A DNA stretch of 64,000 nucleotides from Thermoplasmatota archaeon (GTDB taxonomy: Archaea; Thermoplasmatota; E2; DHVEG-1): positions 347,669 to 411,668 of the forward strand of contig JAOZSQ010000001.1 in NCBI GenBank assembly GCA_029939595.1. The letters are read 5' to 3'. Shown here piece after piece: positions 6,236 to 42,118 of this stretch (the first letter of the stretch is position 1; every line of letters begins with the position of its first letter). The notes under the pieces are model-generated. The model was given only the letters and a program-made list of their open reading frames with translations, searched no databases and was not told where the DNA came from. Both the position numbers and the translations under genes were made by a program.

Positions 6236-6258
6236 TAGATAAAAAAAATGATAAATAA

Positions 6259-6266: not shown

Positions 6267-6389
6267 AAAGAAAGCATTATTACATTGCAAAATCTATTAT
6301 ACCAGAAGTTTGAAAACTATCCGACTAAAGGTAAATAATTAAGGAAATAAGTCAATTAATTTATATAACATTTTATTAAGGTAAAAGGT

Positions 6390-7713: not shown

Positions 7714-8472
7714 ATGGATGAATTAGTAAAGTTACTTCAAAAGATGCTGAAGCTTAATGAGGATGTTATTACTGAGGAGTTTAAAACAAAACTTTCAACA
7801 ATCCTTGAAGCGAAAATCAACGAAAAGGTTGAAGAAAAGAAAAAGGAGTTCCAAGAAGAGATTGAGAAGACAAAACAAGATGAACTTGAACTTTATAAAG
7901 AAGAGTTAGTTGATTCTTTAGATGAGTATTTAAGTTTAAGTGCTGAAGAGTATGCAAAAGACAATAAAAAGAATTTTGCAAACGCTAAGATGGTTAGAGA
8001 AGCTAAACAAATCAGAGAACAGTTTCAGGAGTTTGTCAAGAATTTCGGTTTCCAACTTTCTGAAGAAAAGCTTGAGCAAGATGACAAGTATAAAGAACTT
8101 GAAGAAAAATATAATAAAGCTGTGAATGAAAAGCTTGAATCAGAAAAGCTCATCAAAAAAATGCAAAAGTCTAAAAAAATTGAAGAAAAAGGAAGTGAAT
8201 TGAAAACTGAATCAGAAAAAGAGAAGTTTGCTAATTTGGCAGGATCTCTCCTTTTTGAAACGGAAGAAGAGTTTGATAAGAAGTTGACTAGTCTTGCCGA
8301 AGTTGTGAAAGGTGAAAAAGAAGACGAAAACAAAGATGGTAAAAAAGTTCCTTTGACTGAAAAAGAGAAGGTAGACGGTGTTCAGCCTCCTCAACCTGTA
8401 GTTAAGCACACAGACGCTATGCAAAACTATATGCATACTTTGAAAGATTTAGGCGAAACAAAAAGTATGTAA
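7714..8472 (+). CDS. Prohead scaffold/core protein (T4 gp22-like)
   Basis: 252 aa, strongly Glu/Lys-rich with predicted coiled coil; directly upstream of the major capsid gene. Confidence 0.55.
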   Translation: MDELVKLLQKMLKLNEDVITEEFKTKLSTILEAKINEKVEEKKKEFQEEIEKTKQDELELYKEELVDSLDEYLSLSAEEYAKDNKKNFANAKMVREAKQIREQFQEFVKNFGFQLSEEKLEQDDKYKELEEKYNKAVNEKLESEKLIKKMQKSKKIEEKGSELKTESEKEKFANLAGSLLFETEEEFDKKLTSLAEVVKGEKEDENKDGKKVPLTEKEKVDGVQPPQPVVKHTDAMQNYMHTLKDLGETKSM

Positions 8473-8531
8473 TAAACATACAAACTTTAAATTAACAATT
8501 TAATAACAAATTTTACTGGAGAAAATAAATT

Positions 8532-20161: not shown

Positions 20162-21280
20162 TTGGAGATTGTTATGAGAAAGATACTATGTTACTTTACG
20201 TTTATGATTTTGTCTATATCCATTATTTATGCTGGTGAATTTGATCCTATGTTAAATGGTGGTAAAAAGTGGAGAATTGGCTATATTGAAGGCGGGGAAT
20301 GGCCATCCTATCAAGAAACTTTTAGATATATGATTAAGCATCTAATAAAATATAATTGAATTAGAGGAGAGTTACCAAAATTTAAAGAAAAATCCAATAT
20401 TAAACCGGTTTGGACGTGGTTATTTAATAGAAGTAAATATTTAGAATTTGTGCCAGAAGCATATTGGACCTCTAATTGGGATAAGAATGAGAGACGAAAA
20501 AATTCTGTATCGGCACTTCGCTATTTGAAAAGAAATAAATTGGATTTGATGTTTGCATTTGGGACGTGGGCTGGTCAGGATATGGCTTTTGGAGATCATT
20601 CAATTCCAACTCTAATCATGTCAGTACGAGATCCAATTAGAGCGGGGTTAGTTAATACCAATGCTGATACAACCTATGATCATATTCATACTCGTGTTGA
20701 TATTGGACGACAAACCAGACATGTTGAATTGTTTCATTCTATTTTAGAATTTAAAAAAATGGGAATGGCGTTTGAATATTCAGAAGATGGTAGATTATAT
20801 TCAGGTTATGAACCTGTTAAGAAATTGTCTGTATCACTTGGATTTGAATTGGTGACTTGTAATGCTATTGACAACAATTGTACTAAGCAAGAAGCATATA
20901 AAGCACTAAAGAAGTGTTATGGTGAGCTAATTGCAAAAAATATTGATGTTTTATATTTGACTATTCATCGTGGTAAGACTTTGGAGACTTTGCCAAAATT
21001 ATTGAAAAATATTAAAATACCCACATACACTCAACCAAACAAACAGGCGTTTAAAGAAGTAAAATTAGGTGTCTTGTTTTCTATGTCTCAACAGTCTGCT
21101 GAAAACATGGCTCTTTTTCATACAAAAGCCATGATTAAGGTATTGAATGGTTCTGTGCCTTCTAAATTAAGTATGACATTTGTTGATCCATTGAAAATTA
21201 TTGTCAATACAAATACTGCAAGAATGATAAAATATAAGATACCGGATGATATCTTAGATATGGCGGATATTGTCTATTAG
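20162..21280 (+). pseudogene. Secreted ABC-transporter substrate-binding protein (ABC_sub_bind-like) interrupted by an in-frame TGA at 20357-20359
   Basis: A signal-peptide ORF (20162..20359) and 20450..21280 lie in the same frame, separated by a single TGA. AFGTWAGQ...IPTLIMSVRDPIRAGLV matches the AIGTPAAQ...IPIVFSAVTDPVGAGLV pattern of that family. Confidence 0.5.
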
Positions 21281-22528: not shown

Positions 22529-22536
22529 TATTTATA
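22529..22536 (-). promoter_or_regulatory. T4-type late promoter motif TATAAATA on the minus strand
   Basis: The plus strand reads tatttata; on the minus strand this lies about 45 nt upstream of the 22482 start codon. Confidence 0.25.
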
Positions 22537-23701
22537 ACATTCCGATTAAATTTCTAATAATGAAAAAATGATCCTCAAATATTTGACGTGGTTCAAGTTC
22601 GCCTAACGGCATCCAAAACGCCCGTTTAGCGTCATCAGATCCTCTGACTTTTGGGAGAGATTCTTCGTCTTTTAGTTGTATTAAATATGCTTTTGTGATT
22701 GTTCTTCCTCTTACTGATCTATATGGATAATCATATGTCCTTTCTTCTTTTATACTGCCTTTTAACACAGGTATAGGTATTTTTAATCTGGTTTCTTCTC
22801 TGAGTTCCCGAATCATTGCATCTATAAGTTTTTCTTCTGGATTGAGAAATCCCCCAGGAAGTGCATATAAACTCTTTCCAGGATGTGATTTTCTTTCAAC
22901 CATCAATACATGACCCGATTGGATAACAACGGCATCTACTGTTTGAAAAATGGGTTTGAATTTATCTTTGAATTCGCCCTTGTAGTGTTGTACAAAATTG
23001 TATTCTTCTTTTATATTTCTATATTCATCGGTTTTTCTGAATTCCATCAAAAAATTGATTGACGAATTTGGAACCAACGAAGATACAAAATTTTTAAATG
23101 GTTCCGGTTCAGTATAAAAGTAAGGTCCTCTAATTGATGATCCGTTAATATTTTTGTGGCTGTTTAAAAGAATTAGTTCCCATTGTGGAAACGATTTGAG
23201 ATAAAATGAAGTTGGATCTTTATCATGCCCTATTATACCAATTTTAGCCATGTTGTACATTGTTTTGCCATGTTCTTTAATAATGTACTTAATCTTTTTT
23301 TGTACTTTCAGTATCCAAAGTACATTATTATAAATGTAATCATCTAAAGGGTTTATGATAATTGGTTTTCCATCAAATTCTTCAAATAACATTTGATGAA
23401 CTTCTTCGTATATGAAAGGGTTTCGTAGGAAGCTTCTAGCTAGATTGGATGATCCTATTAGAATAATTACTTGATTAGCCAATTTAAGGGCTTCTTTGAT
23501 GATATGAGCGTGTCCATTATGTAAAGGTTGGAAACGACCAATAAAAATTAAATAATCAAATTTTTTTTTCTTTTTTGGAAAGGTTTTTGATATAGATTCT
23601 ACATATGTTTTTGCGTCTTCATCTGTTAATGGCGCATCTGTTGGTGGTTCCATAAAAGCTATATCTTCATTTTGTGGTTGTTTTAATAATGCTGTTATCA
23701 T
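22532..23701 (-). CDS. nadM: Bifunctional NMN/NaMN adenylyltransferase (archaeal NadM type) fused to a Nudix hydrolase (NatV-like)
   Basis: HxGH motif in FIGRFQPLHNGHAHII. C-terminal Nudix box GGFLNPEEKLIDAMIRELREETRL. The ORF track begins at a TTG (23713); the ATG at 23701 is the likelier start. Confidence 0.75.
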   Translation of the reverse strand: MITALLKQPQNEDIAFMEPPTDAPLTDEDAKTYVESISKTFPKKKKKFDYLIFIGRFQPLHNGHAHIIKEALKLANQVIILIGSSNLARSFLRNPFIYEEVHQMLFEEFDGKPIIINPLDDYIYNNVLWILKVQKKIKYIIKEHGKTMYNMAKIGIIGHDKDPTSFYLKSFPQWELILLNSHKNINGSSIRGPYFYTEPEPFKNFVSSLVPNSSINFLMEFRKTDEYRNIKEEYNFVQHYKGEFKDKFKPIFQTVDAVVIQSGHVLMVERKSHPGKSLYALPGGFLNPEEKLIDAMIRELREETRLKIPIPVLKGSIKEERTYDYPYRSVRGRTITKAYLIQLKDEESLPKVRGSDDAKRAFWMPLGELEPRQIFEDHFFIIRNLIGML

Positions 23702-23719
23702 ATCTTCCTCCAAGATAAT

Positions 23720-23941
23720 TCAAGATAGGTCTTTTCCCTCTTTGAATTGTTGTTTGTATGATATACGAGCTTTTTCTTCAGCTTGTTCGTATATGTTCAT
23801 ATAATCGTTTTTAATATCATTATTGAAATTAGCTGTTTGTAATGCCTCTTTAAGAAATTCCTGGTAAGGTTTTGGCTGGATAAATTTTTTTAGTTGGGTG
23901 ATCATTTTAATCTCCATTAGTTGTTTTCCCATTATACACAT
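23720..23941 (-). CDS. Hypothetical small protein
   Basis: 73 aa. Confidence 0.25.
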   Translation of the reverse strand: MCIMGKQLMEIKMITQLKKFIQPKPYQEFLKEALQTANFNNDIKNDYMNIYEQAEEKARISYKQQFKEGKDLS

Positions 23942-23962
23942 AATTTAATGGGAAAGTCAACC

Positions 23963-24310
23963 TTAGACAAATTCCAACCCATTTATATTTTGAGCATATT
24001 CTTCAAAGGTTTCCCAAAAGTCATTAATAATATTTTCTCTGCTATTCATCCATGATATACCTTTTTTGAGGTAAAGAGTTAGTAATTGTGCGTTGCGTGA
24101 TGCACATTTGATATTATCAAATGGAATTATTACTCTTTCATCTTCAAAATAAAGTTTTTTAATACAAGGCAAAGAATTGACTATTAGTGATGGAATATCT
24201 TTAAAATCAACTTGGTGTTTGCCCTTTACAGGTACATTTTTTGTGATCAATATTATTTCATTATATGGAAATATATGATTGTCACTTATATGGTAAGTTG
24301 GATTTATCAT
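23963..24310 (-). CDS. Hypothetical protein
   Basis: 115 aa; overlaps the nadE stop. Confidence 0.3.
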   Translation of the reverse strand: MINPTYHISDNHIFPYNEIILITKNVPVKGKHQVDFKDIPSLIVNSLPCIKKLYFEDERVIIPFDNIKCASRNAQLLTLYLKKGISWMNSRENIINDFWETFEEYAQNINGLEFV

Positions 24311-25122
24311 AATTCTATAAATTTTTTGAAATGTTTAGGAATATTGCAGACCGGTATTGGTTGCATTTTGTGTTGATTGGCTTTTTGAAATTTTTCATAA
24401 ATTTTCAAAACTTCTACTTGTCTATTATCCATGTTCAAAAGATTGGGTTTGTTGACAGCCCAATTTATTGCCCATTCCAATTCTTTGTATGTGGCACCGA
24501 TTTGATTTTCATCGGACCGGTTATCTTCCCATAAACCATCAGTAGGAGTGGCTTCTATAATATCTCTGGCTATTCCCAAATACCGACCCAAACCCCACAC
24601 TTCTGATTTCATCAAATCCCCAATTGGGGATATATCAACTCCACCATCTCCATATTTGGTATAAAAACCAATTCCAAAGTCTTCTACTTTATTACCGGTT
24701 CCTACTACCAAGTTATTGTTAGAACCAGCTAATGCATATAGAGTCATCATTCTTAACCTGGATTGAGTATTTGCTAACGTCAAATTGTCCAATAAAGGCA
24801 TTTCATTTTTGAATGCTTGGAATGGTTCGGTTAGATTAATTTCAATGAATGTAACATGAGGATAATTATTTTGGAGCCATTTGATATGGTTTATGGCAGA
24901 GTTACGGGCTTGTTTTTGAGGTAGTTGCATATAATATTGTGTTGGCATCACAGCAAGGGTTGTTTCATAATCTGTTTTGGCGCATAATGTGGAAACAACA
25001 GCCGAGTCAATTCCACCGGATACACCAACTACAAATCCATTCATTTTGGAATTGTCACAATATGTTTTTAGCCAATCTACTATATGTTTGGTTATCAATT
25101 TATATTTCATTTTTCCTTTCAA
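24307..25122 (-). CDS. nadE: NH3-dependent NAD+ synthetase
   Basis: PP-loop GVSGGIDSAV; 271 aa, size typical of NadE. Confidence 0.8.
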   Translation of the reverse strand: MKGKMKYKLITKHIVDWLKTYCDNSKMNGFVVGVSGGIDSAVVSTLCAKTDYETTLAVMPTQYYMQLPQKQARNSAINHIKWLQNNYPHVTFIEINLTEPFQAFKNEMPLLDNLTLANTQSRLRMMTLYALAGSNNNLVVGTGNKVEDFGIGFYTKYGDGGVDISPIGDLMKSEVWGLGRYLGIARDIIEATPTDGLWEDNRSDENQIGATYKELEWAINWAVNKPNLLNMDNRQVEVLKIYEKFQKANQHKMQPIPVCNIPKHFKKFIEL

Positions 25123-25294
25123 AAAAATTGCATTTGTAATTTTTAGTGGAAAGAATTTGCATTAAAAATCCCTCATCTGAATGTCCACTAAAAAAAAGTC
25201 GTTTTTTACAGAGTCCTAATTTGATATATTCAACATCAACCGGTTTAATTTTTTTACAATGCCAATGTTTACAATTTTTACATGCTTTTTTCAT
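25100..25294 (-). CDS. Small Cys-rich (zinc-ribbon-like) protein
   Basis: CKNCKHWHC...C in 64 aa. Confidence 0.3.
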   Translation of the reverse strand: MKKACKNCKHWHCKKIKPVDVEYIKLGLCKKRLFFSGHSDEGFLMQILSTKNYKCNFFERKNEI

Positions 25295-25296
25295 GA

Positions 25297-26445
25297 TTAT
25301 TTTATATTGAAGGTTTCTTTTAGATAATTCAAAAAAGTCTCACTTTTGCACATTCCTTTTCCTGGAGAATCACTTACTTTGGCAACTGGATGATCATTAC
25401 ATTTTATCATTTTCATGACAATTTGTATGGGTTCCAATCCCACATCATTGGTAAGATTGGTTCCGATTCCAAAAGCAGTATTGGTGTATGCTTTGAAATC
25501 ATAGTACGTTTTAATGGCTGTTGGAATAGTTAAACCGTCACTGAATATCAGTGTTTTGGTTTTGGGATCAATGCCCATTTTTTCATAATGTAGCAATGCT
25601 TTGTTACCCCATTCCAAAGGATCACCAGAATCGTGTCGCATACCATCAAACAGTTTGGAAAAGTATAAATCAAAGTCTTTTAAAAATGCGTCAAACCCAA
25701 CTGTATCAGTTAATGCAATTCCAAGTCTACCTCTATATTCTTTTGCCCAAACATCTAATGCAGCTTTTTGGAAAACGTGTAATGGTACTAGTTGTTGGAA
25801 TGCTTGTAAATATTCATGAGCCATTGTACCGATAGGTGTTATCCCAAATCTCATAGCCAGATCAACATTACTGGTTCCGATTATGTTTTGTTTGTTTTCT
25901 TTTAGGAGATATTCTAAAACAGCTATTTGCCATTTTTTAGAATATCTCCTTCTGGTTCCAAATTCGGCTATTTTAATATCTTTGCCATGTTTTCTAAGAT
26001 ATTCGGACTTTTCTGCTAGATGGATGGCTCCACCGGTCAAGTTTTTGTTGTCAGAAAAATACACTTCATTGACAGTAGCCAGGATTGGGATTTCAAAAAG
26101 TGTGGTTTGGAGCCACGGACCTTTGACATTGATACAGAGATCGTTTTTATCACACCGAATATCAACATATTGTTCGGGTACAAAGCAAAAACCTCTTAAA
26201 AAGTCTACGTAGTCTTCGCTTAGAAATCCTAATTTCAAAAGGTAGTTGGCTTCCTCATAGGTTAAATTGAGGTTTTTGAGTTTATAAATTTCTTCGCTAA
26301 TCTTCTCCAAATATGGATTGAAGTCTATGTTGGGAGTTCGGCATTTGAATTCATATTCAACCTCTACACCAGCAAAATGATGAAGTACCACTTGTTGCAT
26401 GGTGAGTTTATAAAGGTCTGTATCAAGAAGACTTGTAATTATCAT
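25297..26445 (-). CDS. pncB: Nicotinate phosphoribosyltransferase
   Basis: N-terminus SLLDTDLYKLTMQQVVLHHF...EVEYEFKCR aligns with E. coli PncB [20 protein letters not shown]...AAEFRCR. 382 aa (PncB is about 400 aa; NadV is about 490 aa). Confidence 0.75.
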   Translation of the reverse strand: MIITSLLDTDLYKLTMQQVVLHHFAGVEVEYEFKCRTPNIDFNPYLEKISEEIYKLKNLNLTYEEANYLLKLGFLSEDYVDFLRGFCFVPEQYVDIRCDKNDLCINVKGPWLQTTLFEIPILATVNEVYFSDNKNLTGGAIHLAEKSEYLRKHGKDIKIAEFGTRRRYSKKWQIAVLEYLLKENKQNIIGTSNVDLAMRFGITPIGTMAHEYLQAFQQLVPLHVFQKAALDVWAKEYRGRLGIALTDTVGFDAFLKDFDLYFSKLFDGMRHDSGDPLEWGNKALLHYEKMGIDPKTKTLIFSDGLTIPTAIKTYYDFKAYTNTAFGIGTNLTNDVGLEPIQIVMKMIKCNDHPVAKVSDSPGKGMCKSETFLNYLKETFNIK

Positions 26446-26499
26446 AATTTAACCTTTGAGTTTGTCCCGACATTTATCCCGACAAAATGGCGGGAGATT

Positions 26500-27234
26500 T
26501 TAAAAATTGAACTGAGAAGGATCAATTTGTGTACTCGGTCCGCCACTTCCTAAACTGGAACTTTGACTAGAAATGCTCTTACTTACGAACCTCCCAAGTT
26601 TTGCCAGTTTCTCCGGTGTGGCATCTCCAATATCAACAAATTCATCAAATTGGACAGTGTTCTGGTAATCGTCCAAATCCTGTTTGTATTGGCCAGTATT
26701 GACACCAATCAGAATGTTGAGGATAGATTCCATGTTCTTGTCTTTTTTGGTAGACGTAATCGCTTGTTTCACATCATCCGGTTGCATGTCCCATACAGTT
26801 TCCCAACCATCTGTTATCACGAAGTTGATGGCATTAACATCAAAATCTTGATCCCGAAGGTCTTTGGCATAGGCGGCAACGGTTTTAACAGCGTCACAAG
26901 TTGCTCCAAACAGGTTGGTATACCCACCCGCTTTCATTCCATCATAATCGGTTAATTCAATATCACCAACCGGCATGAAACCATGTACTTCATTCAGTTC
27001 TTGGTTGAAATATCCAACCCTCAAAATGATATTTTCAGAGCGATCATCTTTTCTACAAGCAAGTACCACATTCTTAACTGCTTGGATCAATTGATCTTGA
27101 AAAGAACTTACACTGGAAGATTTATCGCACCAGAGATTCACAAGAGTTTGTTCGGCAGCACCCAAATCTTCGGGGCGCACGGCACTAAATGCGAAGTTAG
27201 AGCCTTTTACCATTTGTTTACTAAGTACAGGCAT
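26500..27234 (-). CDS. von Willebrand factor A (vWA) domain protein with intact MIDAS (TerY-like)
   Basis: DxSxS in LWCDKSSSV; GGYTNLFGA; FVITDGWET. Confidence 0.55.
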   Translation of the reverse strand: MPVLSKQMVKGSNFAFSAVRPEDLGAAEQTLVNLWCDKSSSVSSFQDQLIQAVKNVVLACRKDDRSENIILRVGYFNQELNEVHGFMPVGDIELTDYDGMKAGGYTNLFGATCDAVKTVAAYAKDLRDQDFDVNAINFVITDGWETVWDMQPDDVKQAITSTKKDKNMESILNILIGVNTGQYKQDLDDYQNTVQFDEFVDIGDATPEKLAKLGRFVSKSISSQSSSLGSGGPSTQIDPSQFNF

Positions 27235-27255
27235 AGTAGCCTCCTTTATATAAGT

Positions 27256-27702
27256 TTAAAAAAGTAGTTTTGGATGTAAACTGATGTAAATCATTGCCGG
27301 ACCGCTGGCTATGAATTCATCAGCATATCCAAATTCACTGATGGAACCGATTCGGTTATTGATAGCCATGATGGTATCCCATTCAAGAGTGAATGTTGAA
27401 TTTATTGTGAATACCATTACAACTTTTTTATAGTTGTTTAGAAAAACTCTCAGAGGGCGCAATTTCAAACCTTTGAGAATTTTTCTTATTTTTTTCTTCC
27501 GTCTATCAGATATATCCTTTTCACCAGCAGTAATGAATGATGCCATATATGATGAATATTCATCTTCCATTCCTGTTTGAACAGAAATCATTTGTTTTCT
27601 GAATTCTTTGGCGAATGTATTGCTATTATCCATCATTTTTTTAAGCATCTCTACAAGTTGCTTTTGTGGGAGATACGGAATTTCAAATTTGCGCTTTGAC
27701 AT
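27256..27702 (-). CDS. Hypothetical protein
   Basis: 148 aa; its stop lies in an AAGGAGG RBS for the downstream gene. Confidence 0.3.
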   Translation of the reverse strand: MSKRKFEIPYLPQKQLVEMLKKMMDNSNTFAKEFRKQMISVQTGMEDEYSSYMASFITAGEKDISDRRKKKIRKILKGLKLRPLRVFLNNYKKVVMVFTINSTFTLEWDTIMAINNRIGSISEFGYADEFIASGPAMIYISLHPKLLF

Positions 27703-27765
27703 TGTTACTCCATGTAAAGTCTACTGACTTTGGGTTTTTCTTATAAAGAAGTCAGTAGACTTGGG

Positions 27766-28611
27766 TTAAAATAAATAATCGGTTGTTCTGGCTACTTGCA
27801 TTCCACGATCCTTCATTTGCATTATAAAATCCGCTGCCATCGTTTCAAATCCAGGAACAGGAGAAGTTGCATCTTCCAATAACACAATTTTTTTCAATAC
27901 TTCATCACCAAATGCATCTACAATCTGTTCCAGAGTAGCCTTTAAACAATGACTGGAAGCCCAACCAGCCAATGGAACTAGATCGGCTTCTTCAATAGTT
28001 TCAATGGCTTCTTTGTTCATACCAGTTCCAGGGTCACTCGGAACAACAACTTCGGCTTGTAATCCACCATAATGTTCAGAAAGAAAGTTGCTTCCTTTTG
28101 TTAGGATATTCGTGACACCAAATCGGGTTGTTTCCCATTCGTCCAAAGCCTCCGCAATTGGAGTATATATACTAAATCCTGGTTGAGCGATTAAACAATG
28201 CTCCGGCCAGATGCAAAGCACATACTTGCTTTTTTGTTCAAGTTGCTCAGTATAGTAAAGTACCCATTCCAATAAAGATTTTGTTGATCCATCTGGCATT
28301 AATACAGGTACATTCGGATTGGTTGGCAACCATTCTTTTTTTCTTATGTCTTCATTGTATATCAGAGTGGGTTTGCCACCTTCAAATGGTATAGGATGTT
28401 TGCCACGTTTGTTCTTCCAAAAATGTGGATGGGCAATATGAATTCTATGGTGAGAATCCAATGTAACGTGAATATCATCTAACCGTTTGATATTATTTTT
28501 TATGTATTTTGCAAGGCGATTACCGTCTTCTTTTGCTCCTGCCACTGGCAGGTTTCCGTTTTCCAAAACAAAATCGTTTTGGGGGTCAATGATAACGAGT
28601 TGCATGTTCAT
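27766..28611 (-). CDS. pncA: Nicotinamidase (isochorismatase family, PncA-like)
   Basis: LVIIDPQNDF against E. coli PncA LLLVDLQNDF. IWPEHC against FWPDHC. Catalytic Cys context LAGWASSHCLKAT against GLATDYCVKFT. Confidence 0.75.
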   Translation of the reverse strand: MNMQLVIIDPQNDFVLENGNLPVAGAKEDGNRLAKYIKNNIKRLDDIHVTLDSHHRIHIAHPHFWKNKRGKHPIPFEGGKPTLIYNEDIRKKEWLPTNPNVPVLMPDGSTKSLLEWVLYYTEQLEQKSKYVLCIWPEHCLIAQPGFSIYTPIAEALDEWETTRFGVTNILTKGSNFLSEHYGGLQAEVVVPSDPGTGMNKEAIETIEEADLVPLAGWASSHCLKATLEQIVDAFGDEVLKKIVLLEDATSPVPGFETMAADFIMQMKDRGMQVARTTDYLF

Positions 28612-29447
28612 GTTGTCTCCTGGTCTAAATTAAGAAATGAAGCTCCAACAACTGTTAGATCGTCTAAATTGAGGATTCTCTCTTCAGCACAATCATTAAC
28701 AAATCGTTTGAATCTTCTTTGAATAAATTCTCCTTTGAAATTTTTAAAATTTAACATTTGTTTGAAAAATTCTGAATCATTCTTTTTATGATGATTCCCG
28801 CCCATTTGATGAAATGAATTAATTCCGTCACTTGCGAGAAGTAAAAATTCCAATTTATCTTCATCAAATTCTTGGGCAAAGGGTTCTTCTTTTGAAACAT
28901 TGTAAGTTATAGTATTAAGTTTAGGACCCAATGTTTGTATATGAACCTCTTTTGATAACCCATTTACTGCTCCCCATTTTTTTCTTTTTCCCTCATCTAC
29001 ATAGTATAAAGGATAGTATGGGTATTCACCACCAACCATTTTGATTGTAATTATACAAATTGTTGAACTTTCTTTCAATTTGAAAATAATGGAACCATCT
29101 CCAAAAATTATAATGTTTACTTTACCTTCATCGCTGTATGCTAGTAATAACGTGGCAAATAACGATTCGGAAGGAAGATCCATTAGTTTAGTAACTTCCA
29201 TTGATTTGTTCATTAATTCATCAATATATGTTTCATATCCTTCGTTTTTTATTAGATATGTTGAATATAAGCTGAAATGGGATAATATTCTTGCTCCCAT
29301 ATCGGAGTTTTTGGCACTGGAACAGCCATCACATAACGACATATAGAATTCTTCATAGTTATCTCCACCATAACAAAAATAGTCTTCGTTGTGTAGGTGT
29401 TGTTTGCCTTTATGAGTAAACCCATCAATGTGTATTTCTGGTTTCAT
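28608..29447 (-). CDS. PP2C-family Ser/Thr protein phosphatase
   Basis: LCDGCSSAKNSDMGARILSHFS and LLASDGINSF resemble PP2C metal-binding motifs. Confidence 0.5.
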   Translation of the reverse strand: MKPEIHIDGFTHKGKQHLHNEDYFCYGGDNYEEFYMSLCDGCSSAKNSDMGARILSHFSLYSTYLIKNEGYETYIDELMNKSMEVTKLMDLPSESLFATLLLAYSDEGKVNIIIFGDGSIIFKLKESSTICIITIKMVGGEYPYYPLYYVDEGKRKKWGAVNGLSKEVHIQTLGPKLNTITYNVSKEEPFAQEFDEDKLEFLLLASDGINSFHQMGGNHHKKNDSEFFKQMLNFKNFKGEFIQRRFKRFVNDCAEERILNLDDLTVVGASFLNLDQETT

Positions 29448-29607
29448 TTTGCCTGATAAGTTATTTGTTTTGGTTCAATAATTCTGGATTCTTTTGTTAT
29501 GTCTTTTGCTTCTTTGAGTCTTAATGACCAAAGAGGTTGTCTTAAATTATTAAGTACCCTTTTTTCTATTTTAGCTATTATTTTTATTTTGCGTTCTGGT
29601 TCAATTT

Positions 29608-29793
29608 TCATGTGGTCTCCTTATAACGATAATAAGCAAATGGAGTTCTTACTTGCCATTCTCCTGGATATTCTTTCATAACTTCAATGGCTAATTCAAC
29701 CGATTTATAATTACCATCTAAGCCACGTTTCAGTTCGGCTTCGGTTATTTGTTCTATCTCTTTTTCTCCAACAAATTGTCTTTCGTACATCAT
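29608..29793 (-). CDS. Hypothetical small protein
   Basis: 61 aa. Confidence 0.25.
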   Translation of the reverse strand: MMYERQFVGEKEIEQITEAELKRGLDGNYKSVELAIEVMKEYPGEWQVRTPFAYYRYKETT

Positions 29794-30002
29794 TTGCTCC
29801 AGAGTGGGAAGATTGAAAATATTAAACAGGATATTATAAATGTAATAATTACAATTTTTATTAGATAATTTTTAAAAGGTTTGTGAAATTTTTTATCAGG
29901 AAATATTTTGAAATTAAAGTTATATTCACTCACTGATAAAAAAATTGTAAAACCAGTAACTATTGTTATCATGATTATACTCATTATAATATAAAGAATC
30001 AT
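29790..30002 (-). CDS. Small membrane protein (2 predicted TM helices)
   Basis: Hydrophobic IIMSIIMITIVTGFTIFL and IVIITFIISCLIFSIF segments. Confidence 0.3.
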   Translation of the reverse strand: MILYIIMSIIMITIVTGFTIFLSVSEYNFNFKIFPDKKFHKPFKNYLIKIVIITFIISCLIFSIFPLWSK

Positions 30003-30004
30003 GA

Positions 30005-31726
30005 TTACCTCGTGGAAAATTGATATAAGATATTATCTTTGAAAACTAAAGCTTTTTCCTCATTACATGATAATGTTAAATCTCCATCTAATGTGTTATC
30101 AGTTACAACCCGTACTTTTTGATTTTCAGGTTGATTGGAAAACATTTCAACTTCATTGTTTTCATTGATTAATAAACCAATTCCTTGTCTAAGCACAGTG
30201 AAATTAATATCCATGAATCCAGGTATGGTTTTGTTTTGAATAGTGTAGCTTTCCATTCCTTTTGCGAACCGGATTATAAATCTTATATATTTTCTTCCTC
30301 TGTTGCCGATTAAAATGGCTACTTGATTCATATATTTTCCATAAAGAATTTTATAACCTTGTAATTCTTTTATTTGGAGGAACTGCCCTGCTAACCGTTT
30401 GCCAGTATTTTGAGGTATCAAAATATATGGTTTACCCAATATGTTTTGGTAAACCATTCCGTTCATTATTTGAGTCGCATAGGGCAGCACACCCCAACTT
30501 GTTCCATATGTTAAAATGGGTTTTCTTAACATTTTAATGTTGATTTCAACGATTCGGTCCTGCACTTTACCAATCAATGCGTTATCCGCAACATTTATTT
30601 GTTCAAATTTAGTAGTATAATCCACCTTTTCACCAGAACTTAATATTTTTGCAAAATTAGTATCAGCTTCTACTGGTTCAAGGGTTTTTGGGAGTATGAT
30701 TGTTTCCATTTGCCGATCAAATGCACTGAATGTACAATCGTCAATATAGATTACATAACCAGCTTTTACTACGTTTTTTCCCTGATGGGAAAAATGCCAT
30801 TTGATTGGATCTCGGTATTCTTTTATTTTTTCTAATTTAAAGAAGTTACTGGAAACCACTTTTTTGAAAATGGGAGCAACCACCTTTACAATACCAGCCA
30901 TATCGGGTGGTAATGTGCGTTTACCATGTTTAAAAATATCTTCTAACCATCCACGCATATTGGTGGGTATGTGATCCATCGTTCTCACACATGGAGGCAT
31001 TTTGACCCCTTTATCAAAGATAGATGCATTTTCCTTCATCCGTTTCAGATAAAGTTCTTGTTTGTCGTTATATTGTTTTGGATTATATTTGGGATGGGTT
31101 CCTTTAAATGGATGTTCTCCCAAGTACACTTTAGTTGCCAAGATTCCAAAAGAAAACCAATCACTTAGTTCGGTAAATTTTTTAGTTTGCATTACTTGTG
31201 GATCGGTCATCAATGGAGAATAGGCATCCGCAGGAAAATCTTTGGTTTGCCAAGAATCCACATCTAAAAAGTGAGGCAATGCCATATCAGCTAAACTAAT
31301 AAGGAAATTAACCTCATTCCAATCCACAATCAAACATTTTTTACTGTGGATGAATTCAAGAGTTATTGCGATTTCATCAACCAGTTTATTTGCTTGATCA
31401 ATTGTGAAATTATTGATTTTGCGAAAGGATTTGGTAAAGGTTTTACACAATGCTTCCATGTTGTCGGCATAGTGCATTGTGATACCTAATGGCGTTCCAC
31501 GTTTGTTAGTGAAAATATCAGTTGGGCGAGATATATTATCCCGTTTCAATTCCATTAATTGGTTGATTTTACCAATCGGAATCATTTTAGAAGGGTCAAT
31601 ATATATTTTGAAAACGGTTTTGTTTTTAACGCAGATATGGCCTTGACCGCCTGTGGTCTTGTAGTTAGCGTCATTCAGCTTGATGGGCTGTTTGTCAAGA
31701 TATACTGTGGTGGGTTTGAAATTCAT
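30005..31726 (-). CDS. Eukaryotic-like Ser/Thr protein kinase
   Basis: Gly-rich loop TTGGQGHICV. Catalytic-loop-like IHSKKCLIVDWNEVNF. Subdomain IX-like DWFSFGILATKVYLGEHPF. Confidence 0.5.
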   Translation of the reverse strand: MNFKPTTVYLDKQPIKLNDANYKTTGGQGHICVKNKTVFKIYIDPSKMIPIGKINQLMELKRDNISRPTDIFTNKRGTPLGITMHYADNMEALCKTFTKSFRKINNFTIDQANKLVDEIAITLEFIHSKKCLIVDWNEVNFLISLADMALPHFLDVDSWQTKDFPADAYSPLMTDPQVMQTKKFTELSDWFSFGILATKVYLGEHPFKGTHPKYNPKQYNDKQELYLKRMKENASIFDKGVKMPPCVRTMDHIPTNMRGWLEDIFKHGKRTLPPDMAGIVKVVAPIFKKVVSSNFFKLEKIKEYRDPIKWHFSHQGKNVVKAGYVIYIDDCTFSAFDRQMETIILPKTLEPVEADTNFAKILSSGEKVDYTTKFEQINVADNALIGKVQDRIVEINIKMLRKPILTYGTSWGVLPYATQIMNGMVYQNILGKPYILIPQNTGKRLAGQFLQIKELQGYKILYGKYMNQVAILIGNRGRKYIRFIIRFAKGMESYTIQNKTIPGFMDINFTVLRQGIGLLINENNEVEMFSNQPENQKVRVVTDNTLDGDLTLSCNEEKALVFKDNILYQFSTR

Positions 31727-31834
31727 ATCCGATATGCTCCATATCGTAATTTTGTTTTGGGTCTTTCCCCAAAAATTTTGTTGTCTCTTTTATTTATATT
31801 ATAATTTTCTAAAAAGGTTTCTGTCAAGAAAAAA

Positions 31835-32272: not shown

Positions 32273-33718
32273 TTACCCAACATTCTGTTCCATTTTCTCG
32301 TGTATATTTTTCTCCTTTTCGGGGTAAGTTTTGCATTGTTCAATTTCCAGTGATTTGTTATATAATTTTGTTGCGTATTCGTTTAACAATTCTAATTTAA
32401 TTAATTTTGATGTCCATCGTTCAGGAATATTATCAATCCCATAATAAGCTCCGGCTAACATGCCATAAATAGCACCAACTGTATCAGCGTCATCACCCAA
32501 GTTTACAGCCAGAATACAACCTTCTTCAAAGGAATTGGAATTGTAAAATGCCCATAAAGCAGCTTCCATACTACTTGAAACTCTTCCCCAAGCACAAATA
32601 TCAGGAGGTCTTTTTTCTTTAAAAGATCCGTTGGCTATTTCCAATATTTTTGAATGGAGATTGGTATATCCTGTTTTCCAGTAATTATAGGGACCATATA
32701 ATGGAGAAAGAAGTTCTTCTTTTGGTATTTCATCAACGGCTCCCCATATTAAACCACCATAATATTCACATGCGCCAATACATTCGTGGGCTTGATGGGT
32801 GGTTTTTGAACTTAATCCTGAATTATGTATTGCTTTTTTGTGGTCAGTCCAATAGAAGAGCGGAACGGGTGCCAAACGCATTAAAGAACCATTACCTGCT
32901 TTTTCAGGATCGGCAGATCCACAATAAGCTTTTTTTTCTTTTTGAAATTTGAATTCATAGATAGCATCTCTTGTGGTCATGCCAACATCAAAACATTTTC
33001 CTATGCTACTTAGGAAGCCTTCAAAATGCTATCTGGAATAGTTTCTTATTTGGTCAAGAGGATCAAACTCGCCTTTATTTATAAGGCTTTCTGTGAGGCA
33101 TAACGCAAGCGAGGTATCGTCTGTCCATTGTCCAGGTGAAACATTGAATTCGCCTCCACTGGTCATATCAGAGATAAAAGGAAAGGTTCCTGGGCTTCTG
33201 AACTCAACAGGTGCGCCGAGTGCATCACCACATGCCAATCCGATTATACTGCCTTTGAATCTATCAATTGTTTTCATATTTTTAATATCATTTGTATTCC
33301 GGCTGCTATTAGTTTCATATATTTCCTTTAGTATTTGGGTTCTTTTAGAGGGAAGACCTTTTGTTTTTTGCATACATTGTCTTTTTCCTTTGGAATAGTC
33401 AATATTTTCATAGTCATCAAATTGTTCTGCGGTTAGGTCAACAATTTCATCATCTGGCCATTTTGCAAACCAATGGTTTGCATCATAACCAGGAATTTTC
33501 AAACAAAAAGGTTTTGAACCGGCTGGTGCAATGTGTTCAATTAGAAATTCAGTAACCACATAACAATAATTTTTAGTTGGATTTTTATCGGACCAATCTT
33601 TTCTTAATTTGGGTTTTAAATTTCTTCTGCCCAATCTTCTGAGAGCATGATATAACACATCTTTTTTGATACCCGCTTTTTCAAACATTTTGTTTGATTC
33701 TTCAGGAGATATTTTCAT
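32273..33718 (-). pseudogene. ADP-ribosylglycohydrolase (ARH/DraG family) interrupted by an in-frame TAG at 33029-33031
   Basis: N-terminal half carries [20 protein letters not shown]...[18 protein letters not shown]-terminal half carries GNGSLMR and GDDADTVGAIYGMLAGAYYG. Both halves are in the same frame with 16 sense codons between the TAG and the next Met. The TAG sits where ARH proteins have a Trp (RYxxW). Confidence 0.65.
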
Positions 33719-36357
33719 GCCGGTTCATATTGTTTGATATCATCTTGGAATTGCTTTAGTAAATCTTCGGCTTCTTCTTTATTTTTTAAAGATTTAATAA
33801 ATTCCGATTTTTTACCTCCATCAACCAGAGATTTTTCAAATATTGCAGATGCGAATATACAGTACACCATTTCTGAACCGTTTCCTGTTCCATAAGTTTC
33901 ATCATCATCCATTTCTAGTTTAGTGGGATTTCTTGAATCCGCATTAATTGCAAAACAACCATCGCTTTGAACAAGATTGGTGGAGAGTTTTACATCTTTG
34001 ACTATTCTTCCTAATGCACTATTTGCTTTTTCGTTATCTCTTTCAAAATTATCGTGCATTATCTTTTGGACTCCATGATGGGCACTGTTATATATTTGAA
34101 CAGGTCCTCTCATTTCACAAATGGATAACTTACGCAAATCGGGACGATCAGTATACAATCCCAATTTAGGATGCACTTTTTCAAAAGTTATTTCTTCTTC
34201 TGGTTTATATTTTATTTTTGTTTTTGGTGCAAATTCTATATTTAAACGTGGGAGTCGTATTCTTTTTTTGGTTCCTTTTACGTTTATATATAAAAAAGTA
34301 TCGGGTATTCTGTGAGCAGCCTTCAGTAATCTCCATTTATTCAAATTGACAGGATTGAAAATGGGTTTGGCACCGTGTTGTGTATCTTTTGGATTGATTA
34401 ATTCCTGTGGAGGATTAATTATCATTTTCCAAATATCAACATTTTTATATTTTGGAATATCTTCTTTTATATCCAGTGTTGTAGAGTCACCCTTTTCAAT
34501 AATCAAGGATTGTTCACGTTTAACTGCTGCCATTCCTTTGATGCTGTTGGTGTCGGTTACTTCTGGAATTAGATATTCTTCGGTGTTGCGTTTTCTTAGA
34601 ATAAAATATATAACCTTTTTCATGTCGGTTGAATATTTGGTGTCGGAGTATGTGATCTTACCATCTTTAATTTCTATACCTTCATTTATAATTTCATTTC
34701 CATTTTCATCTTTAAATGTTAAGGTATCACATTTATCGGTAAGTAATGATTCAATCCAACCCTTTTTGGTTCGTATAAAAGCTATAATATCTGCTTTCAT
34801 AGTGTTGTCTGTTTCTACGTTGAATTCTTTTCCTTTGAATTTGCTTTTCCTTGTTACCATTACATTTTTTGCATATTCATATAATTTAGATTTATCAGAT
34901 TTGTTCAACGCAGCAAAACAGCGGGTTATAAAAGCATTTGCTGTGAGTCTATGTTCATTTTTTAAACTGAACATAGAATTGGTATCCAAGAATGGGGGAT
35001 GAGCGTCATTTTTTTCGTTTTTATATTTAACATCAATGATTGTTAATTTAAGAAAAAATTTTGCTCGTCTGTGGTCAATTTCAAGGTCATCACCGATTTC
35101 TTTTTCCAAACCATATAACAGAGTTGAAAATTCTGATAGGTTTTCTGCAAAGGTGTTAATTGGCTCTTTTTCATATCGGTATGCACCTTTGCTGATGGTT
35201 TTAGCCAAATATGGAGAATATATTGCTCCTCCTTGATAATTTTTGACATAGTAATCAGTATCTTCTTTGTCATCATCTTTTTTTACTCTATCTGACTTAT
35301 AAACTTTTACCCCCCTATCATTTTCTGTTTTGGATAATTTTCCTTTTTTTTCAAGATATGAATACATATTTTCATAGTTTTTATGTTTTTCTAATATCTT
35401 TTTTAGAAGTTCGTGGGTTTTGGCAGCTTCTATCTCTTTTTGATATGAAGCAAATTCGGTATAGCTTGGATCAATCATATAACCACCAATCAATGTTTTG
35501 ACCACGAATTCATCTTTTGTTTTTTCGTTAGTCATATCTATGTCTGCTAGTACATCAAATACTTGAATAGTTCTTTGACTCATAGTTTTGTAGTTTTCAT
35601 TTTCATCTAATTTCCCTATATTATGCTTCCGGCGCAATCCGCAATTTATTTCCATAATTTCTTTGATTACATCATGGCATTGAATTATGTCAATTCCAAG
35701 TAATTGCCTGTTTGTGGGTTCTGAATGACCGCATATTGAAAAGTAATGGGATGCGGGATTGTAGAAACAATCTTGTGTCATAAGATATTCCATATATTCG
35801 TTAATTATTCTTATTTCATTGGCATAATAGTTTGTTTCTTCCAATGTTTTTGTTTTTAGTTCCTCTTGTAATGAAGCTATTATTTTACGCATTTCTTCGG
35901 GTGTTGGGGCTTTGAATTTATCGGGTCGTTCACTTCCATTAAAGGGAGGAAAAAAGTCACAAATTTCTTGATATATTCCACTGTTGGATTGAGATAACGC
36001 ATAACCGGCATCTTTTGCTCCTTGACCAAAACAAGATATTTTTCCAAACGAACTTTTATATGGTTTCAACATGGAAATTGCTTCAAGTGTGTTGGGTTTG
36101 CCGCCAGTGTGATATATTCCGAGCCAGTATGAATTGTCTCGTAAGTGGTATAATGAAATTTGTATTTTGAGTTTTGAGTTTTTGTTTTTGTAATCTACAT
36201 TATTGTGATAAATTTCACGAATGTACGTTCTGATTGCTCTTTCTTGAACTTCTCCAGTTTTTTCAGTAATAGGTGAACTGTGTTGTTCTGAAGTCAATTC
36301 CCTTAATGAATTATGATCTTCTTCGGGAAAATGAGTTAATGTAATTTCTTCAATCAT
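33715..36357 (-). CDS. Large hypothetical protein with an N-terminal GHKL-type ATPase-like region
   Basis: 880 aa. N-box-like [10 protein letters not shown]1-like [11 protein letters not shown]2-like [16 protein letters not shown]. The rest is unrecognised. Confidence 0.3.
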
Positions 36358-36474: not shown

Positions 36475-37206
36475 TTATGCTGCTTCTTCAACAGTTTCAG
36501 TATCCATGCCGATCTGTTTCTTCAACTTCTCCAGTTCGGATTCTACTTCGCTATCACCAATTTGAAGAACATTATCAATTTCATCTTCCAGAGTCTTGGC
36601 TTGTGTTTGTTGACCCATTTCTTCATACGCCAAAGCAAGCACTTCTTCACTTTCCACACGCCGTTTCATTTCTTCCATCATTGATATCGTATCATTGAAA
36701 TCAATTTGTGCGATTTGTTTATTAACTTCTTTTGATACTGCTGCTGCTTTTTGACGAGCGGTTAATTCAGCTAATTCCCTTTCGTATTTCTTGATTTCTT
36801 CTTTTAATGTTGCAATGGTTTGTTCAACCTTTTTAACACTATCTATCCGGCTCCCAACGAGGGTTTCAGATAATTGAAGGTTCTTTTTGTAATCATTTTG
36901 TTTTTGGAGGGCTGCTGTTGCTAACCGAGTGGCTTCTTTTTCATCAATTTTGCCATCTTTTGCCGATTGAAGTAACCCAATCGCCTTGTTGCCCCAAACA
37001 CCAACTAATTCTTTATTAGCCTTTACATCTCTGTTAGCCTTTATTTGGAGGGCTTTGGTTTCTGCATAGGCGTTTAAAGCCAGTTCAAGTTTCTTTTTTA
37101 GTTCACGAATTCCCTCGGCTATCAATTTGATAGGATCTTCAATTTTGCTTATGAGTTCGTGGCTTTGCGATTTAAAAATGCGCCCGATAGATTTAAAAAA
37201 TCCCAT
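36475..37206 (-). CDS. pspA: PspA/IM30/Vipp1-family membrane-stress protein
   Basis: MGFFKSIGRIFKSQSHELISKIEDPIKLIAEGIRELKKKL aligns with E. coli PspA [40 protein letters not shown]. Coiled-coil throughout. Confidence 0.8.
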   Translation of the reverse strand: MGFFKSIGRIFKSQSHELISKIEDPIKLIAEGIRELKKKLELALNAYAETKALQIKANRDVKANKELVGVWGNKAIGLLQSAKDGKIDEKEATRLATAALQKQNDYKKNLQLSETLVGSRIDSVKKVEQTIATLKEEIKKYERELAELTARQKAAAVSKEVNKQIAQIDFNDTISMMEEMKRRVESEEVLALAYEEMGQQTQAKTLEDEIDNVLQIGDSEVESELEKLKKQIGMDTETVEEAA

Positions 37207-37310: not shown

Positions 37311-37766
37311 TCATAATGAATCCAATATCGCTTTTTTTATTCGGTCACGAGACCAATCGTTTTTCCAATCAGCTAATCTTCCTAATCTATCAGCACTTTT
37401 TAGCTTTGTCAAATCTTTTTTTAAACTTTCTTTTGCTTCTGGAATTTCCTTGTCCATGTGATGTTTAATCAACCAAAATGTTTCATCTGATATAATATAA
37501 GAGAAAGGTAATAATAATTTAACTGATGCATCAGAATGGCCTTTGGTTTGAATTGTTTTACCTAAGTCATGTAAGAGGGTAGCTAAAATTAGATCGCAAT
37601 TCTGAGGCCATTTTGATACTGCTATGGCAAATGATTGAATAGAATGTGAATAGGCGCATATTTCTGGATGAAGATTGGGGTCCTGTTTTACCCATTTCAA
37701 TTCCTCAATCATATTTAAAAATATGTCCAGATAAGGTTCCACTATTTTGGGGTCTTTAATTTTCAT
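37311..37766 (-). CDS. HD-domain phosphohydrolase
   Basis: H...HD motif: HSIQSFAIAV ... LLHDLGK. Confidence 0.55.
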   Translation of the reverse strand: MKIKDPKIVEPYLDIFLNMIEELKWVKQDPNLHPEICAYSHSIQSFAIAVSKWPQNCDLILATLLHDLGKTIQTKGHSDASVKLLLPFSYIISDETFWLIKHHMDKEIPEAKESLKKDLTKLKSADRLGRLADWKNDWSRDRIKKAILDSL

Positions 37767-37820: not shown

Positions 37821-38162
37821 ATGGATGATGAAACTTTTTTGATACGTCTTCGTGATAATATTAAAAAGAAATACCCAAATGCTTGTAAATTTTTTGAATT
37901 AAGGGAAAAAGATCCTGTCGTGGAGAAATATTTAAAAGCATGGGAAGATAATCAGTTAAAATCTTTGCAAGATAATACACAGGCTAAACTCACTTTTGAA
38001 ATTGTACTTATTGAATGTTCTGTTATTTTGTCCAGACGAGTGCAATGTATTCTTGAACAACAAAAAAAGATAAAACAACAAAAGGCAGCACAAGAACAAA
38101 CAAAAAAATCAAATCCAACACCCAAATCAAATCCGTTTGGTGCGGAAGTTCTTAGGAGATAG
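37821..38162 (+). CDS. Hypothetical protein
   Basis: 113 aa; lone plus-strand gene. Confidence 0.3.
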   Translation: MDDETFLIRLRDNIKKKYPNACKFFELREKDPVVEKYLKAWEDNQLKSLQDNTQAKLTFEIVLIECSVILSRRVQCILEQQKKIKQQKAAQEQTKKSNPTPKSNPFGAEVLRR

Positions 38163-41758: not shown

Positions 41759-42118
41759 TTATATTAATTGTTTATAAATTATCTCCTCGTCATACAGGAT
41801 TTCTAAAAAGCTTTCTATATCTTCTTCTTCCGAGTGGAATGCAACCATTACTTTTTGTTGGGTTACGTCAATACTATAATTATCAATATTGGAATCGTCC
41901 AATATTTGTAATAGATCCATTCCAAGAAGTTCTCTTTCATGAAAAGTAAAGACATATTTATCGTCCAATATTTTTTTTGCAAAATCTTCTGATACGTCTT
42001 TTACTTTGTCTGTGGCATATGCCACTACTTTTTCTTTTACCTCTTTTATTTCATCTTCAAACCAATCTTGAACCACAGAGATTACAAGAGAAATTAAAAA
42101 ACTGGTTTCAAAAATCAT
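41759..42118 (-). CDS. Small acidic protein translationally coupled to the nuclease gene
   Basis: 119 aa, Asp/Glu-rich; start overlaps the nuclease stop (ATGA). Confidence 0.3.
   Translation of the reverse strand: MIFETSFLISLVISVVQDWFEDEIKEVKEKVVAYATDKVKDVSEDFAKKILDDKYVFTFHERELLGMDLLQILDDSNIDNYSIDVTQQKVMVAFHSEEEDIESFLEILYDEEIIYKQLI

Follow-up and report, generated by a model that had tools for sequence, protein, structure and literature searches.

Why would a phage carry, in one run of genes, a protein kinase, a phosphatase and a von Willebrand A (vWA) protein together with enzymes of nicotinamide adenine dinucleotide (NAD+) synthesis, and what might their products do together? The question is raised by a window of 64,000 nucleotides (the whole stretch of DNA analysed here, from contig JAOZSQ010000001.1), in which a tightly packed operon is read leftward from about 31.8 to 22.5 kb. 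As part of the explanation that we favour overall, this operon probably joins two modules that both recur in large phages. Module A consists of a Ser/Thr kinase with a beta-propeller, a PP2C phosphatase, a nicotinamidase-like enzyme and a vWA protein with a metal-ion-dependent adhesion site (MIDAS), and module B of PncB, NadE and NadM-Nudix. All seven proteins belong to their families and keep intact active-site motifs, as judged by both sequence and structure. From the left end of the operon, the genes are the following:

22532..23701, minus strand: NadM-type adenylyltransferase for nicotinamide mononucleotide (NMN) or nicotinate mononucleotide (NaMN), joined to a Nudix domain of the ADP-ribose pyrophosphatase type, 389/393 aa; NF003786
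24307..25122 (start probably ATG 25110), minus strand: NadE, NH3-dependent NAD synthetase family, 267–271 aa; TIGR00552, NAD_synthase, SGGIDS
25297..26445, minus strand: PncB, nicotinate phosphoribosyltransferase, 382 aa; NCBIfam and Pfam matches, GTMAH motif
26500..27234, minus strand: TerY-like vWA protein with a complete MIDAS, 244 aa, cassette gene 2; homology and MIDAS residues
27766..28611, minus strand: nicotinamidase-like cysteine hydrolase (PncA-like), 281 aa, cassette gene 1; AlphaFold2 (AF2) model, Foldseek, family profile, residues
28608..29447, minus strand: PP2C-family Ser/Thr phosphatase, cassette gene 3; Pfam PP2C_2, 40 bits (cutoff 24)
30005..31726, minus strand: Ser/Thr protein kinase with a C-terminal beta-propeller, 573 residues, cassette gene 4; Pfam Pkinase, 43 bits (cutoff 31.7)

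All genes from the kinase gene to the NadM gene lie on one strand, separated by −23 to +63 nt. An earlier reading of this DNA (the original prediction) had called the PncA-like, PncB, NadE and NadM-Nudix open reading frames (ORFs), whose positions and minus-strand orientation were confirmed; it had not listed the vWA, PP2C and kinase partners. It had also ascribed the DNA to a phage, which is borne out by genes for a portal protein (4490-6235), a major head protein (8532-10151) and a T4 RnlA-like ligase. The G+C content is about 33%, and transcription runs leftward across 18.5–47 kb of the window. The 281-aa protein is also encoded on a public contig of 426,929 bp, and for this reason we regard the phage as a huge phage. 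A megablast search of the region against 50,697 deposited phage records returned zero matches, and so the phage has no close deposited relative.

The three enzymes of module B all score above curated family thresholds. By sequence, the 382-aa protein is PncB and not NadV/Nampt. It scored 512.9 bits against NF003704 (cutoff 379) and 449.6 bits against the NAPRTase equivalog TIGR01514 (cutoff 269.55) over residues 1–381, and it matched Pfam NAPRTase (8.7e-76) and NAPRTase_N, with GTMAH at 206–210. There was no NadV model among its NCBIfam matches, and the PHROG family 'nicotinamide PRTase' was matched only partially (2.5e-14). Both NCBIfam thresholds were thus passed, and NadV/Nampt, which the original prediction had named as the competing family, was not seen. 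NadE scored 179.9 bits against TIGR00552 (cutoff 63.65), matched Pfam NAD_synthase at 3.2e-48 and carries the SGGIDS PP-loop at 35–40. It is a single-domain protein, and the Pfam and NCBIfam scan found no glutaminase domain in it. Its nearest solved structure was Francisella NadE (3fiu, 4.9e-39), whereas that of B. subtilis (1ee1) was matched only at 4.5e-18. The 271-aa NadE originally called here keeps its family but not its start, as the Shine-Dalgarno context favours ATG 25110 over TTG 25122, making the former the probable start. NadM-Nudix scored 424.9 bits against NF003786 (bifunctional NMNAT/Nudix, cutoff 397) and matched Pfam CTP_transf_like and NUDIX, with the motifs HNGH at 61–64 and GSSIR at 187–191 and a Nudix box at 284–303. 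Its nearest structures were 2qjo of Synechocystis (7e-79) and 2qjt of Francisella (1e-68). Both the fusion and its original start, ATG 23701, hold, the start being preceded by a GGAGG Shine-Dalgarno sequence. With E-values of 1e-48 to 1e-154, chance matches are excluded for the enzyme assignments. In terms of curated thresholds, the profile searches upheld PncB, NadE and NadM-Nudix, and the 281-aa protein scored below.

For the 281-aa protein, a nicotinamidase fold and active site are supported by a structure model and by alignment, and we therefore call it nicotinamidase-like. Its AF2 model had a predicted local distance difference test score (pLDDT) of 93. The best 14 Foldseek matches of this model in the PDB were all nicotinamidases, led by yeast Pnc1 (3v8e, 4.6e-13) and followed by those of Acinetobacter, Pyrococcus, Drosophila, Leishmania, M. 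tuberculosis, S. pneumoniae and B. subtilis. More than 2,200 homologues were collected and 30 were aligned; the resulting family profile matched yeast Pnc1 at 5e-13 and found nothing except nicotinamidases below 1e-3 in the PDB. In the alignment, the triad D9, K172 and C222 corresponds to D8, K122 and C167 of Pnc1 and to D8, K96 and C138 of M. tuberculosis PncA, and the metal site D52, H54 and H138 to D51, H53 and H94 of Pnc1 (the DxH motif and the His of WPxHC). All six residues are invariant across the 30 aligned members. An Asp/His/His metal site combined with an Asp-Lys-Cys triad is characteristic of nicotinamidases within the superfamily. The catalytic residues, on whose presence the original PncA-like call depended, are thus kept on proper alignment, and none of the outcomes by which the original prediction would have fallen came about outright. 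Canonical nicotinamidases (Pnc1, M. tuberculosis PncA, bacterial PncA) have the same isochorismatase-like fold, triad and metal site in the same order. Unlike them, the 281-aa protein falls below the Pfam threshold, is nearly always encoded beside vWA, PP2C and kinase genes, and is longer: family members have about 265–280 aa against 180–216 aa, and the stretch between the metal ligands exceeds that of Pnc1 by about 45 residues. A scan of fusion proteins in the family for telling partner domains found none beyond a tandem duplication and an ankyrin/ion-channel fusion. The latter, a protein of 1,629 aa from the public collection (P0206; not encoded in the window), combines ankyrin repeats, an ion-transport (channel) domain and a PncA-like domain, an architecture that recalls ligand-gated channels with enzyme-derived sensor domains.

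Relatives of the 281-aa protein are encoded by at least 248 viral contigs in IMG/VR and at least 590 cellular genome stretches. We fetched 80 loci of each kind and searched them with the window proteins; the cassette counts that follow cover loci flanked by 6 kb or more on each side (67 viral, 35 cellular). A vWA gene was found near the PncA-like gene in 65/67 viral and 32/35 cellular loci, and directly downstream of it in 49/67 and 31/35, respectively. A Ser/Thr kinase gene was nearby in 64/67 and 28/35 loci and a PP2C phosphatase gene in 58/67 and 19/35, and the full vWA/PP2C/kinase triad was present in 55/67 viral and 19/35 cellular loci. The most frequent order was PncA-like, vWA, PP2C, kinase; in the window it is kinase, PP2C, PncA-like, a 148-aa insert and vWA. 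The same cassette occurs in the 595-kb huge phage LR756511.1, and the PncA-like protein is found in four of the 50,697 deposited phage records. A literature search combining nicotinamidase, PP2C and von Willebrand domains found no description of the cassette, the original TerY-P paper being known to us second-hand. To this extent the conserved cassette of a nicotinamidase-like gene with kinase, PP2C and vWA genes appears undescribed, and this cassette, with its link to NrtR described below, most merits attention.

The vWA protein is 40% identical to a protein of Beggiatoa alba whose gene comes directly after that of the PncA-like protein. Its MIDAS residues (D37-x-S39-x-S41, T106 and D142) are invariant in the family, of which 9/28 members matched Pfam VWA (best 4e-7); a search of the PDB with the family profile gave nothing significant. 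The vWA assignment is based on these Pfam matches and on the MIDAS motif. In the kinase, K40, D135, N140 and D155 are invariant. Its AF2 model (pLDDT 91.9) is all-beta over residues ~285–573, and Foldseek matched the model to kinases and to the propellers 3vu4 and 6x04; the kinase profile matched the kinase domain alone in the PDB, the beta-propeller being known from the structure model. Kinase homologues aligned over the full 573 residues in most loci. PADLOC returned nothing for the PncA-like and vWA proteins and weak matches only for the kinase and PP2C proteins, so that the region does not count among the catalogued defence systems. The trio is reminiscent of the TerY-P triad, in which a vWA protein with an intact MIDAS, a PP2C phosphatase and a Ser/Thr kinase are likewise encoded together. 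However, the TerY-P kinase ends in a zinc ribbon, or in an OB fold in the defence variant, according to the summary of Anantharaman et al. 2012 given in PMC11090510, whereas the cassette kinase is modelled to end in a beta-propeller. The cassette also differs from TerY-P in having the nicotinamidase-like enzyme as a fourth constant member, and no Ter genes are present in the window.

Four independent observations tie the cassette to NAD metabolism. First, PncB was encoded within 10 kb of the cassette in 21/67 viral loci, yet in just 13 of the 50,697 deposited phage records, where NadM-Nudix was found in 462 and NadE in 41. Second, NAD genes are sometimes nested inside the cassette: PncB lies between vWA and PP2C in four viral loci, and the cassette of locus L003 encloses PncB together with a glutamine-dependent NadE, as that of locus L169 does NadE and PncB. 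Third, complete chromosomes of Capsulimonadaceae carry the PncA-like, vWA, PP2C, kinase and PncB genes in a row. Fourth, the 'Nudix' matches beside bacterial cassettes proved to be NrtR, which combines a Nudix domain with the NrtR winged-helix domain (Pfam 1e-25). Full-length NrtR adjoins the PncA-like gene in 30/80 cellular loci, from several phyla, and in three viral loci; nrtR is not present in the phage window. NrtR is an ADP-ribose-responsive repressor of pncA/pncB/nadV/nadE operons (Rodionov et al. 2008, PMC2330246). The bacterial cassette neighbourhoods, with nrtR and sometimes pncB or an ADP-ribosylglycohydrolase gene, match the classical NrtR neighbourhoods described there, although kinase, phosphatase and vWA genes are missing from the classical NrtR operons, whose pncA is canonical. 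An ADP-ribosylglycohydrolase gene, divergent from nrtR, accompanies the cassette in four loci of Pyrinomonadaceae, an arrangement mirrored in the window by an ADP-ribosyl hydrolase gene upstream of the kinase.

Two observations on NrtR are added here in their own right. A cellular example of NrtR beside the cassette is found at 8019-9892 of locus L109. Rodionov et al. 2008 also listed, under NrtR control, a pair of genes without an assigned function (nrtX-nrtY), which might conceivably correspond to this cassette.

Module B was also examined from the side of PncB. Of 12 IMG/VR loci that encode close relatives of PncB, eight had NadE adjacent and four or five had the cassette. One of these 12 (L175) had NadM-Nudix, NadE and PncB together.

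Taken as a whole, the operon plausibly encodes a route from nicotinamide to NAD+, as judged from sequence and structure models. The nicotinamidase-like enzyme would convert nicotinamide to nicotinate, from which PncB would form NaMN with phosphoribosyl pyrophosphate (PRPP). In the classical order, NadM would then adenylate NaMN and NadE would amidate the resulting nicotinate adenine dinucleotide (NaAD) to NAD+. In the order of Francisella, NadE would instead amidate NaMN to NMN, which NadM would adenylate to NAD+. Biochemical evidence exists for both orders (PMC3376133), with Francisella NadE described as an NMN synthetase acting upstream of NadM. In archaea and Acinetobacter, NadM accepts NaMN as well as NMN and works alongside a conventional NAD synthetase (PMC3376133). 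Because the nearest solved relative of the phage NadE is Francisella 3fiu, the sequence NaMN to NMN to NAD+ is as possible as NaMN to NaAD to NAD+. The Francisella tularensis route uses NadE and NadM-Nudix without NadD, as in the phage pair, with 3fiu and 2qjt among the nearest structures; the likeness is one of sequence, and in substrate preference the phage enzymes may or may not follow it. The complete pathway of the original prediction thus remains plausible, with the passage through NaAD having been an assumption. The Nudix half of NadM may cleave ADP-ribose to AMP and ribose 5-phosphate; the latter can be converted back to PRPP by the host. In this way, the operon would keep NAD+ available in infection, also while host NADases (TIR, SIR2 and their like) are breaking it down to nicotinamide and ADP-ribose. 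A two-module operon that rebuilds NAD+ from nicotinamide is the explanation we favour, with reasonable but far from full confidence.

The part played by the kinase, PP2C and vWA proteins is more speculative. Our best guess is that they form a phospho-switch that controls, or reports on, the nicotinamide-consuming step. A broader proposal, possible but in our view doubtful, is that the cassette is a phosphorylation-controlled switch for nicotinamide sensing or salvage, controlled by NrtR in bacteria and captured by hundreds of large phages, often with PncB and NadE nested in it, for use in NAD+-depletion conflicts. By analogy with other phages, we infer a counter-defence role for the operon because its predicted substrates are both products of NADases, because of the NrtR link, and because phage NAD+ reconstitution is proven counter-defence for NARP1 and NARP2 (bioRxiv 10.1101/2024.02.11.579819) and for NARP3 (PMC13464706).

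Several points weigh against the operon as a dedicated route from nicotinamide to NAD+. The first concerns the 281-aa protein, which matched Pfam Isochorismatase PF00857 with 16.6 bits, below the cutoff of 27, over its first 35 residues. It had no match in NCBIfam, and some of its homologues carry a precomputed PF00857 assignment. By sequence, its family is separate, well delimited and apart from canonical PncA: it comprises 1,330 clusters at 50% identity (E<=1e-30), and its profile reaches only 4,133 proteins at E<=1e-3 in a library of 1.8 billion. The original 'PncA-like' label therefore stands for motifs, fold and invariant residues, but not for a curated hidden Markov model threshold or for identity with canonical PncA, and the protein may act on some other pyridine carboxamide or on another kind of amide. 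If so, the protein might be the output enzyme of a TerY-P-like signalling cassette, hydrolysing a different amide, with the proximity of PncB, NadE and NadM being secondary. The extra ~45 residues between the metal ligands, the score below the Pfam threshold and the separateness of the family agree with this idea, as does the tighter association of the cassette with vWA (65/67), kinase (64/67) and PP2C (58/67) genes than with PncB (21/67). It is opposed by the triad and metal site characteristic of nicotinamidases, with all six residues invariant, by structure and profile searches that return nicotinamidases first, and by the enrichment of PncB, NadE and NrtR beside or inside the cassette in both phages and bacteria. 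We consider this alternative unlikely.

The second point is that about two-thirds of the viral cassette loci have no PncB or NadE within 10 kb, which indicates that the cassette needs no module B nearby. Its purpose might then be to remove nicotinamide rather than to rebuild NAD+, either relieving product inhibition of NAD+ consumers or starving competitors of the Nampt/Namat type. The scarcity of nearby PncB fits such a purpose, and NARP1 and NARP2 both need free nicotinamide, of which a nicotinamidase would starve them. However, the cassette here directly precedes three enzymes that take nicotinate to NAD+, an arrangement that makes sense only if the nicotinate is used. Nicotinamide removal as the purpose of this operon is thus, in our estimate, very improbable.

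The third point concerns NadM. NadM enzymes often prefer NMN, and in the survey of 21,191 viral proteomes by Iyer et al. 2022 every phage with NadM also had NadV, with NadV, NadM and NadR being the only NAD+ synthesis enzymes reported for phages (PMC9503650). No NadV-like ORF was present among the ORFs scanned in the window, which shows 64 kb of a genome of ~427 kb, and a NadV gene could lie elsewhere.

Finally, nothing in the window indicates which host defences the phage meets, and a general role in NAD+ supply fits the sequence equally well. In that case the operon would be a general auxiliary metabolic module, supplying more NAD+ to the phage's own consumers in a slow or NAD-poor host, with no specific link to NADase defence. 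Li et al. 2024 read the 'NAD-jumbo phages' in this manner, as carrying host-complementary pathways alongside many NAD-consuming phage enzymes (PMC11662467). The neighbourhood in the window, with an ADP-ribosyl hydrolase and many signalling genes but no known anti-defence genes, is in keeping with this, as is the empty PADLOC result for the PncA-like and vWA proteins. On the other side, the first enzyme is predicted to take nicotinamide and the Nudix domain ADP-ribose, which are exactly the two products of NADase effectors. The NrtR found beside the bacterial cassette responds to ADP-ribose (PMC2330246), and counter-defence has been demonstrated for other phage pathways that make NAD+. Both readings may hold at once, and a purely general role seems to us rather improbable, though a serious contender.

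How the operon compares with known routes determines what can be called new. The original prediction presented a deamidated phage route as a distinct solution, a claim that had already been anticipated: Li et al. 2024 (Microbiome) described 174 'NAD-jumbo phages' in which a salvage or Preiss-Handler pathway is complete, including a pncB-nadD-nadE cluster and mention of a phage pncA (PMC11662467). The central novelty is thus already in print as a genomic prediction. In those phages, pncB, nadE and an adenylyltransferase gene are likewise clustered and predicted, on genomic evidence only, to lead from nicotinate to NAD+. The example cluster uses NadD, whereas the window phage has NadM-Nudix, for which the use of NaMN is putative. 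Furthermore, the route in the window would reach back to nicotinamide through a nicotinamidase-like gene embedded in the cassette, which is not described by Li et al. 2024. The window therefore differs from prior reports in having NadM-Nudix in place of NadD, in its extension to nicotinamide and in its cassette membership. The NARP2 pathway (Nampt/NadV and Nmnat-Nudix; Osterman et al. 2024) and the NadV-NadM pathway of the KVP40 type likewise lead from nicotinamide to NAD+ and end in an enzyme of the same NadM-Nudix family, whose Nudix domain handles ADP-ribose. NARP2, however, is an amidated two-step route through NMN that begins with Nampt/NadV. In the window, PncB replaces NadV, and a nicotinamidase-like enzyme and NadE are added, giving a predicted four steps at a higher ATP cost. 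PncA, PncB and NadE are not mentioned by Osterman et al. 2024 or in the NARP3 paper.

Depletion of NAD+ ranks among the commonest means by which bacteria fight phages, and experiments have proven three phage pathways for NAD+ reconstitution (NARP1–3), while the deamidated four-step phage route has so far been predicted from genomes only. The operon offers a compact, clonable example that starts at nicotinamide and pairs NadM with PncB and NadE instead of NadV. If the coupling to the cassette is functional, it would be the first NAD+ salvage under a protein-phosphorylation switch, common to phages and bacteria, and TerY-P-like triads would gain a defined biochemical output.

The remaining features in and next to the operon, from upstream to downstream, are as follows:

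32273..33718, minus strand: ADP-ribosyl(arginine) hydrolase gene with an N-terminal YunG domain and one in-frame TAG, just upstream of the kinase
31798..31827, minus strand: promoter-like site TTGACA-18-TATAAT (12/12 consensus match, sigma-70), ~70 nt upstream of the kinase gene
29444..30002, minus strand: three small overlapping ORFs (55, 61, 70 aa) between kinase and PP2C, with gaps of −4, −4, −4 and +2 nt
27256..27702, minus strand: 148-aa ORF between the PncA-like and vWA genes, specific to this phage
25100..25294, minus strand: 64-aa Cys-rich ORF between PncB and NadE, without a Pfam, NCBIfam or PHROG match
23963-24310 and 23720-23941, minus strand: two small ORFs of 115 aa and 73 aa, respectively, between NadE and NadM, function not assigned

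The position and perfect match of the promoter-like site suggest that it may be the operon start; the total count of promoter-like sites was not above chance. No terminator-like sites were found on the minus strand between the genes down to 22.5 kb, which is suggestive in the same limited way. The three small ORFs between kinase and PP2C are called likewise in a Logan contig. The 3' end of the PP2C gene overlaps the start of the PncA-like gene by 4 nt. The PncA-like and vWA genes, split here by the 148-aa ORF, are neighbours in most other loci; the 148-aa ORF had no relatives among 165 other loci, and PADLOC gave spurious weak matches only. No counterpart of the 64-aa Cys-rich ORF was found in the other loci searched. 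The 115-aa ORF overlaps the 3' end of NadE by 4 nt, and neither it nor the 73-aa ORF had a Pfam, NCBIfam or PHROG match or relatives in the other loci searched.

The ADP-ribosyl hydrolase gene is possibly associated with the operon. Pfam ADP_ribosyl_GH positions 1-77 were matched in ORF 33029-33718 and positions 96-287 in ORF 32273-32980; the two ORFs share a frame and are separated by one TAG (stop context …IRNYSR*HFEGF…). The nearest relatives of the split hydrolase were Tri1/DraG, below cutoffs. Recoding of TAG was rejected, as TAG ends 12/52 long ORFs and recoding would join few genes; the split is thus a pseudogene, a sequencing error or a local readthrough rather than genome-wide recoding. 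The start of the hydrolase gene is overlapped by 4 nt by the gene of an 880-aa protein (33715-36357, minus strand), for which Pfam, PHROG, PADLOC and the PDB sequences gave nothing, and NCBIfam only a sub-threshold match to an HPE1 effector.

Further upstream of the NAD region, the minus strand encodes a PspA/IM30 family protein (36475-37206; membrane stress/remodelling) and a small HD-domain protein (37311-37766). Two hybrid histidine kinases and a Cache-domain protein (38152-39636, 39643-41754 and 45842-46546, minus strand) make up a sizeable two-component set for a virus; the kinases have HisKA, HATPase and receiver domains, and one also has a PAS domain. An Endonuclease I domain fused to a lamin-tail domain is encoded at 42115-43443 (minus strand). 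The lone plus-strand gene in the leftward block (20450-21280) encodes a protein resembling ABC-transporter substrate-binding proteins (Pfam ABC_sub_bind, 3.7e-11). Outside the window, in the related viral contig of locus L003 (IMG/VR 3300045107_000036), a Thg1-like gene that lies upstream of the cassette by a few kb is apparently interrupted by a reverse transcriptase of the group II intron type (RVT_N, RVT_1, GIIM, HNH) at 4736-6418.

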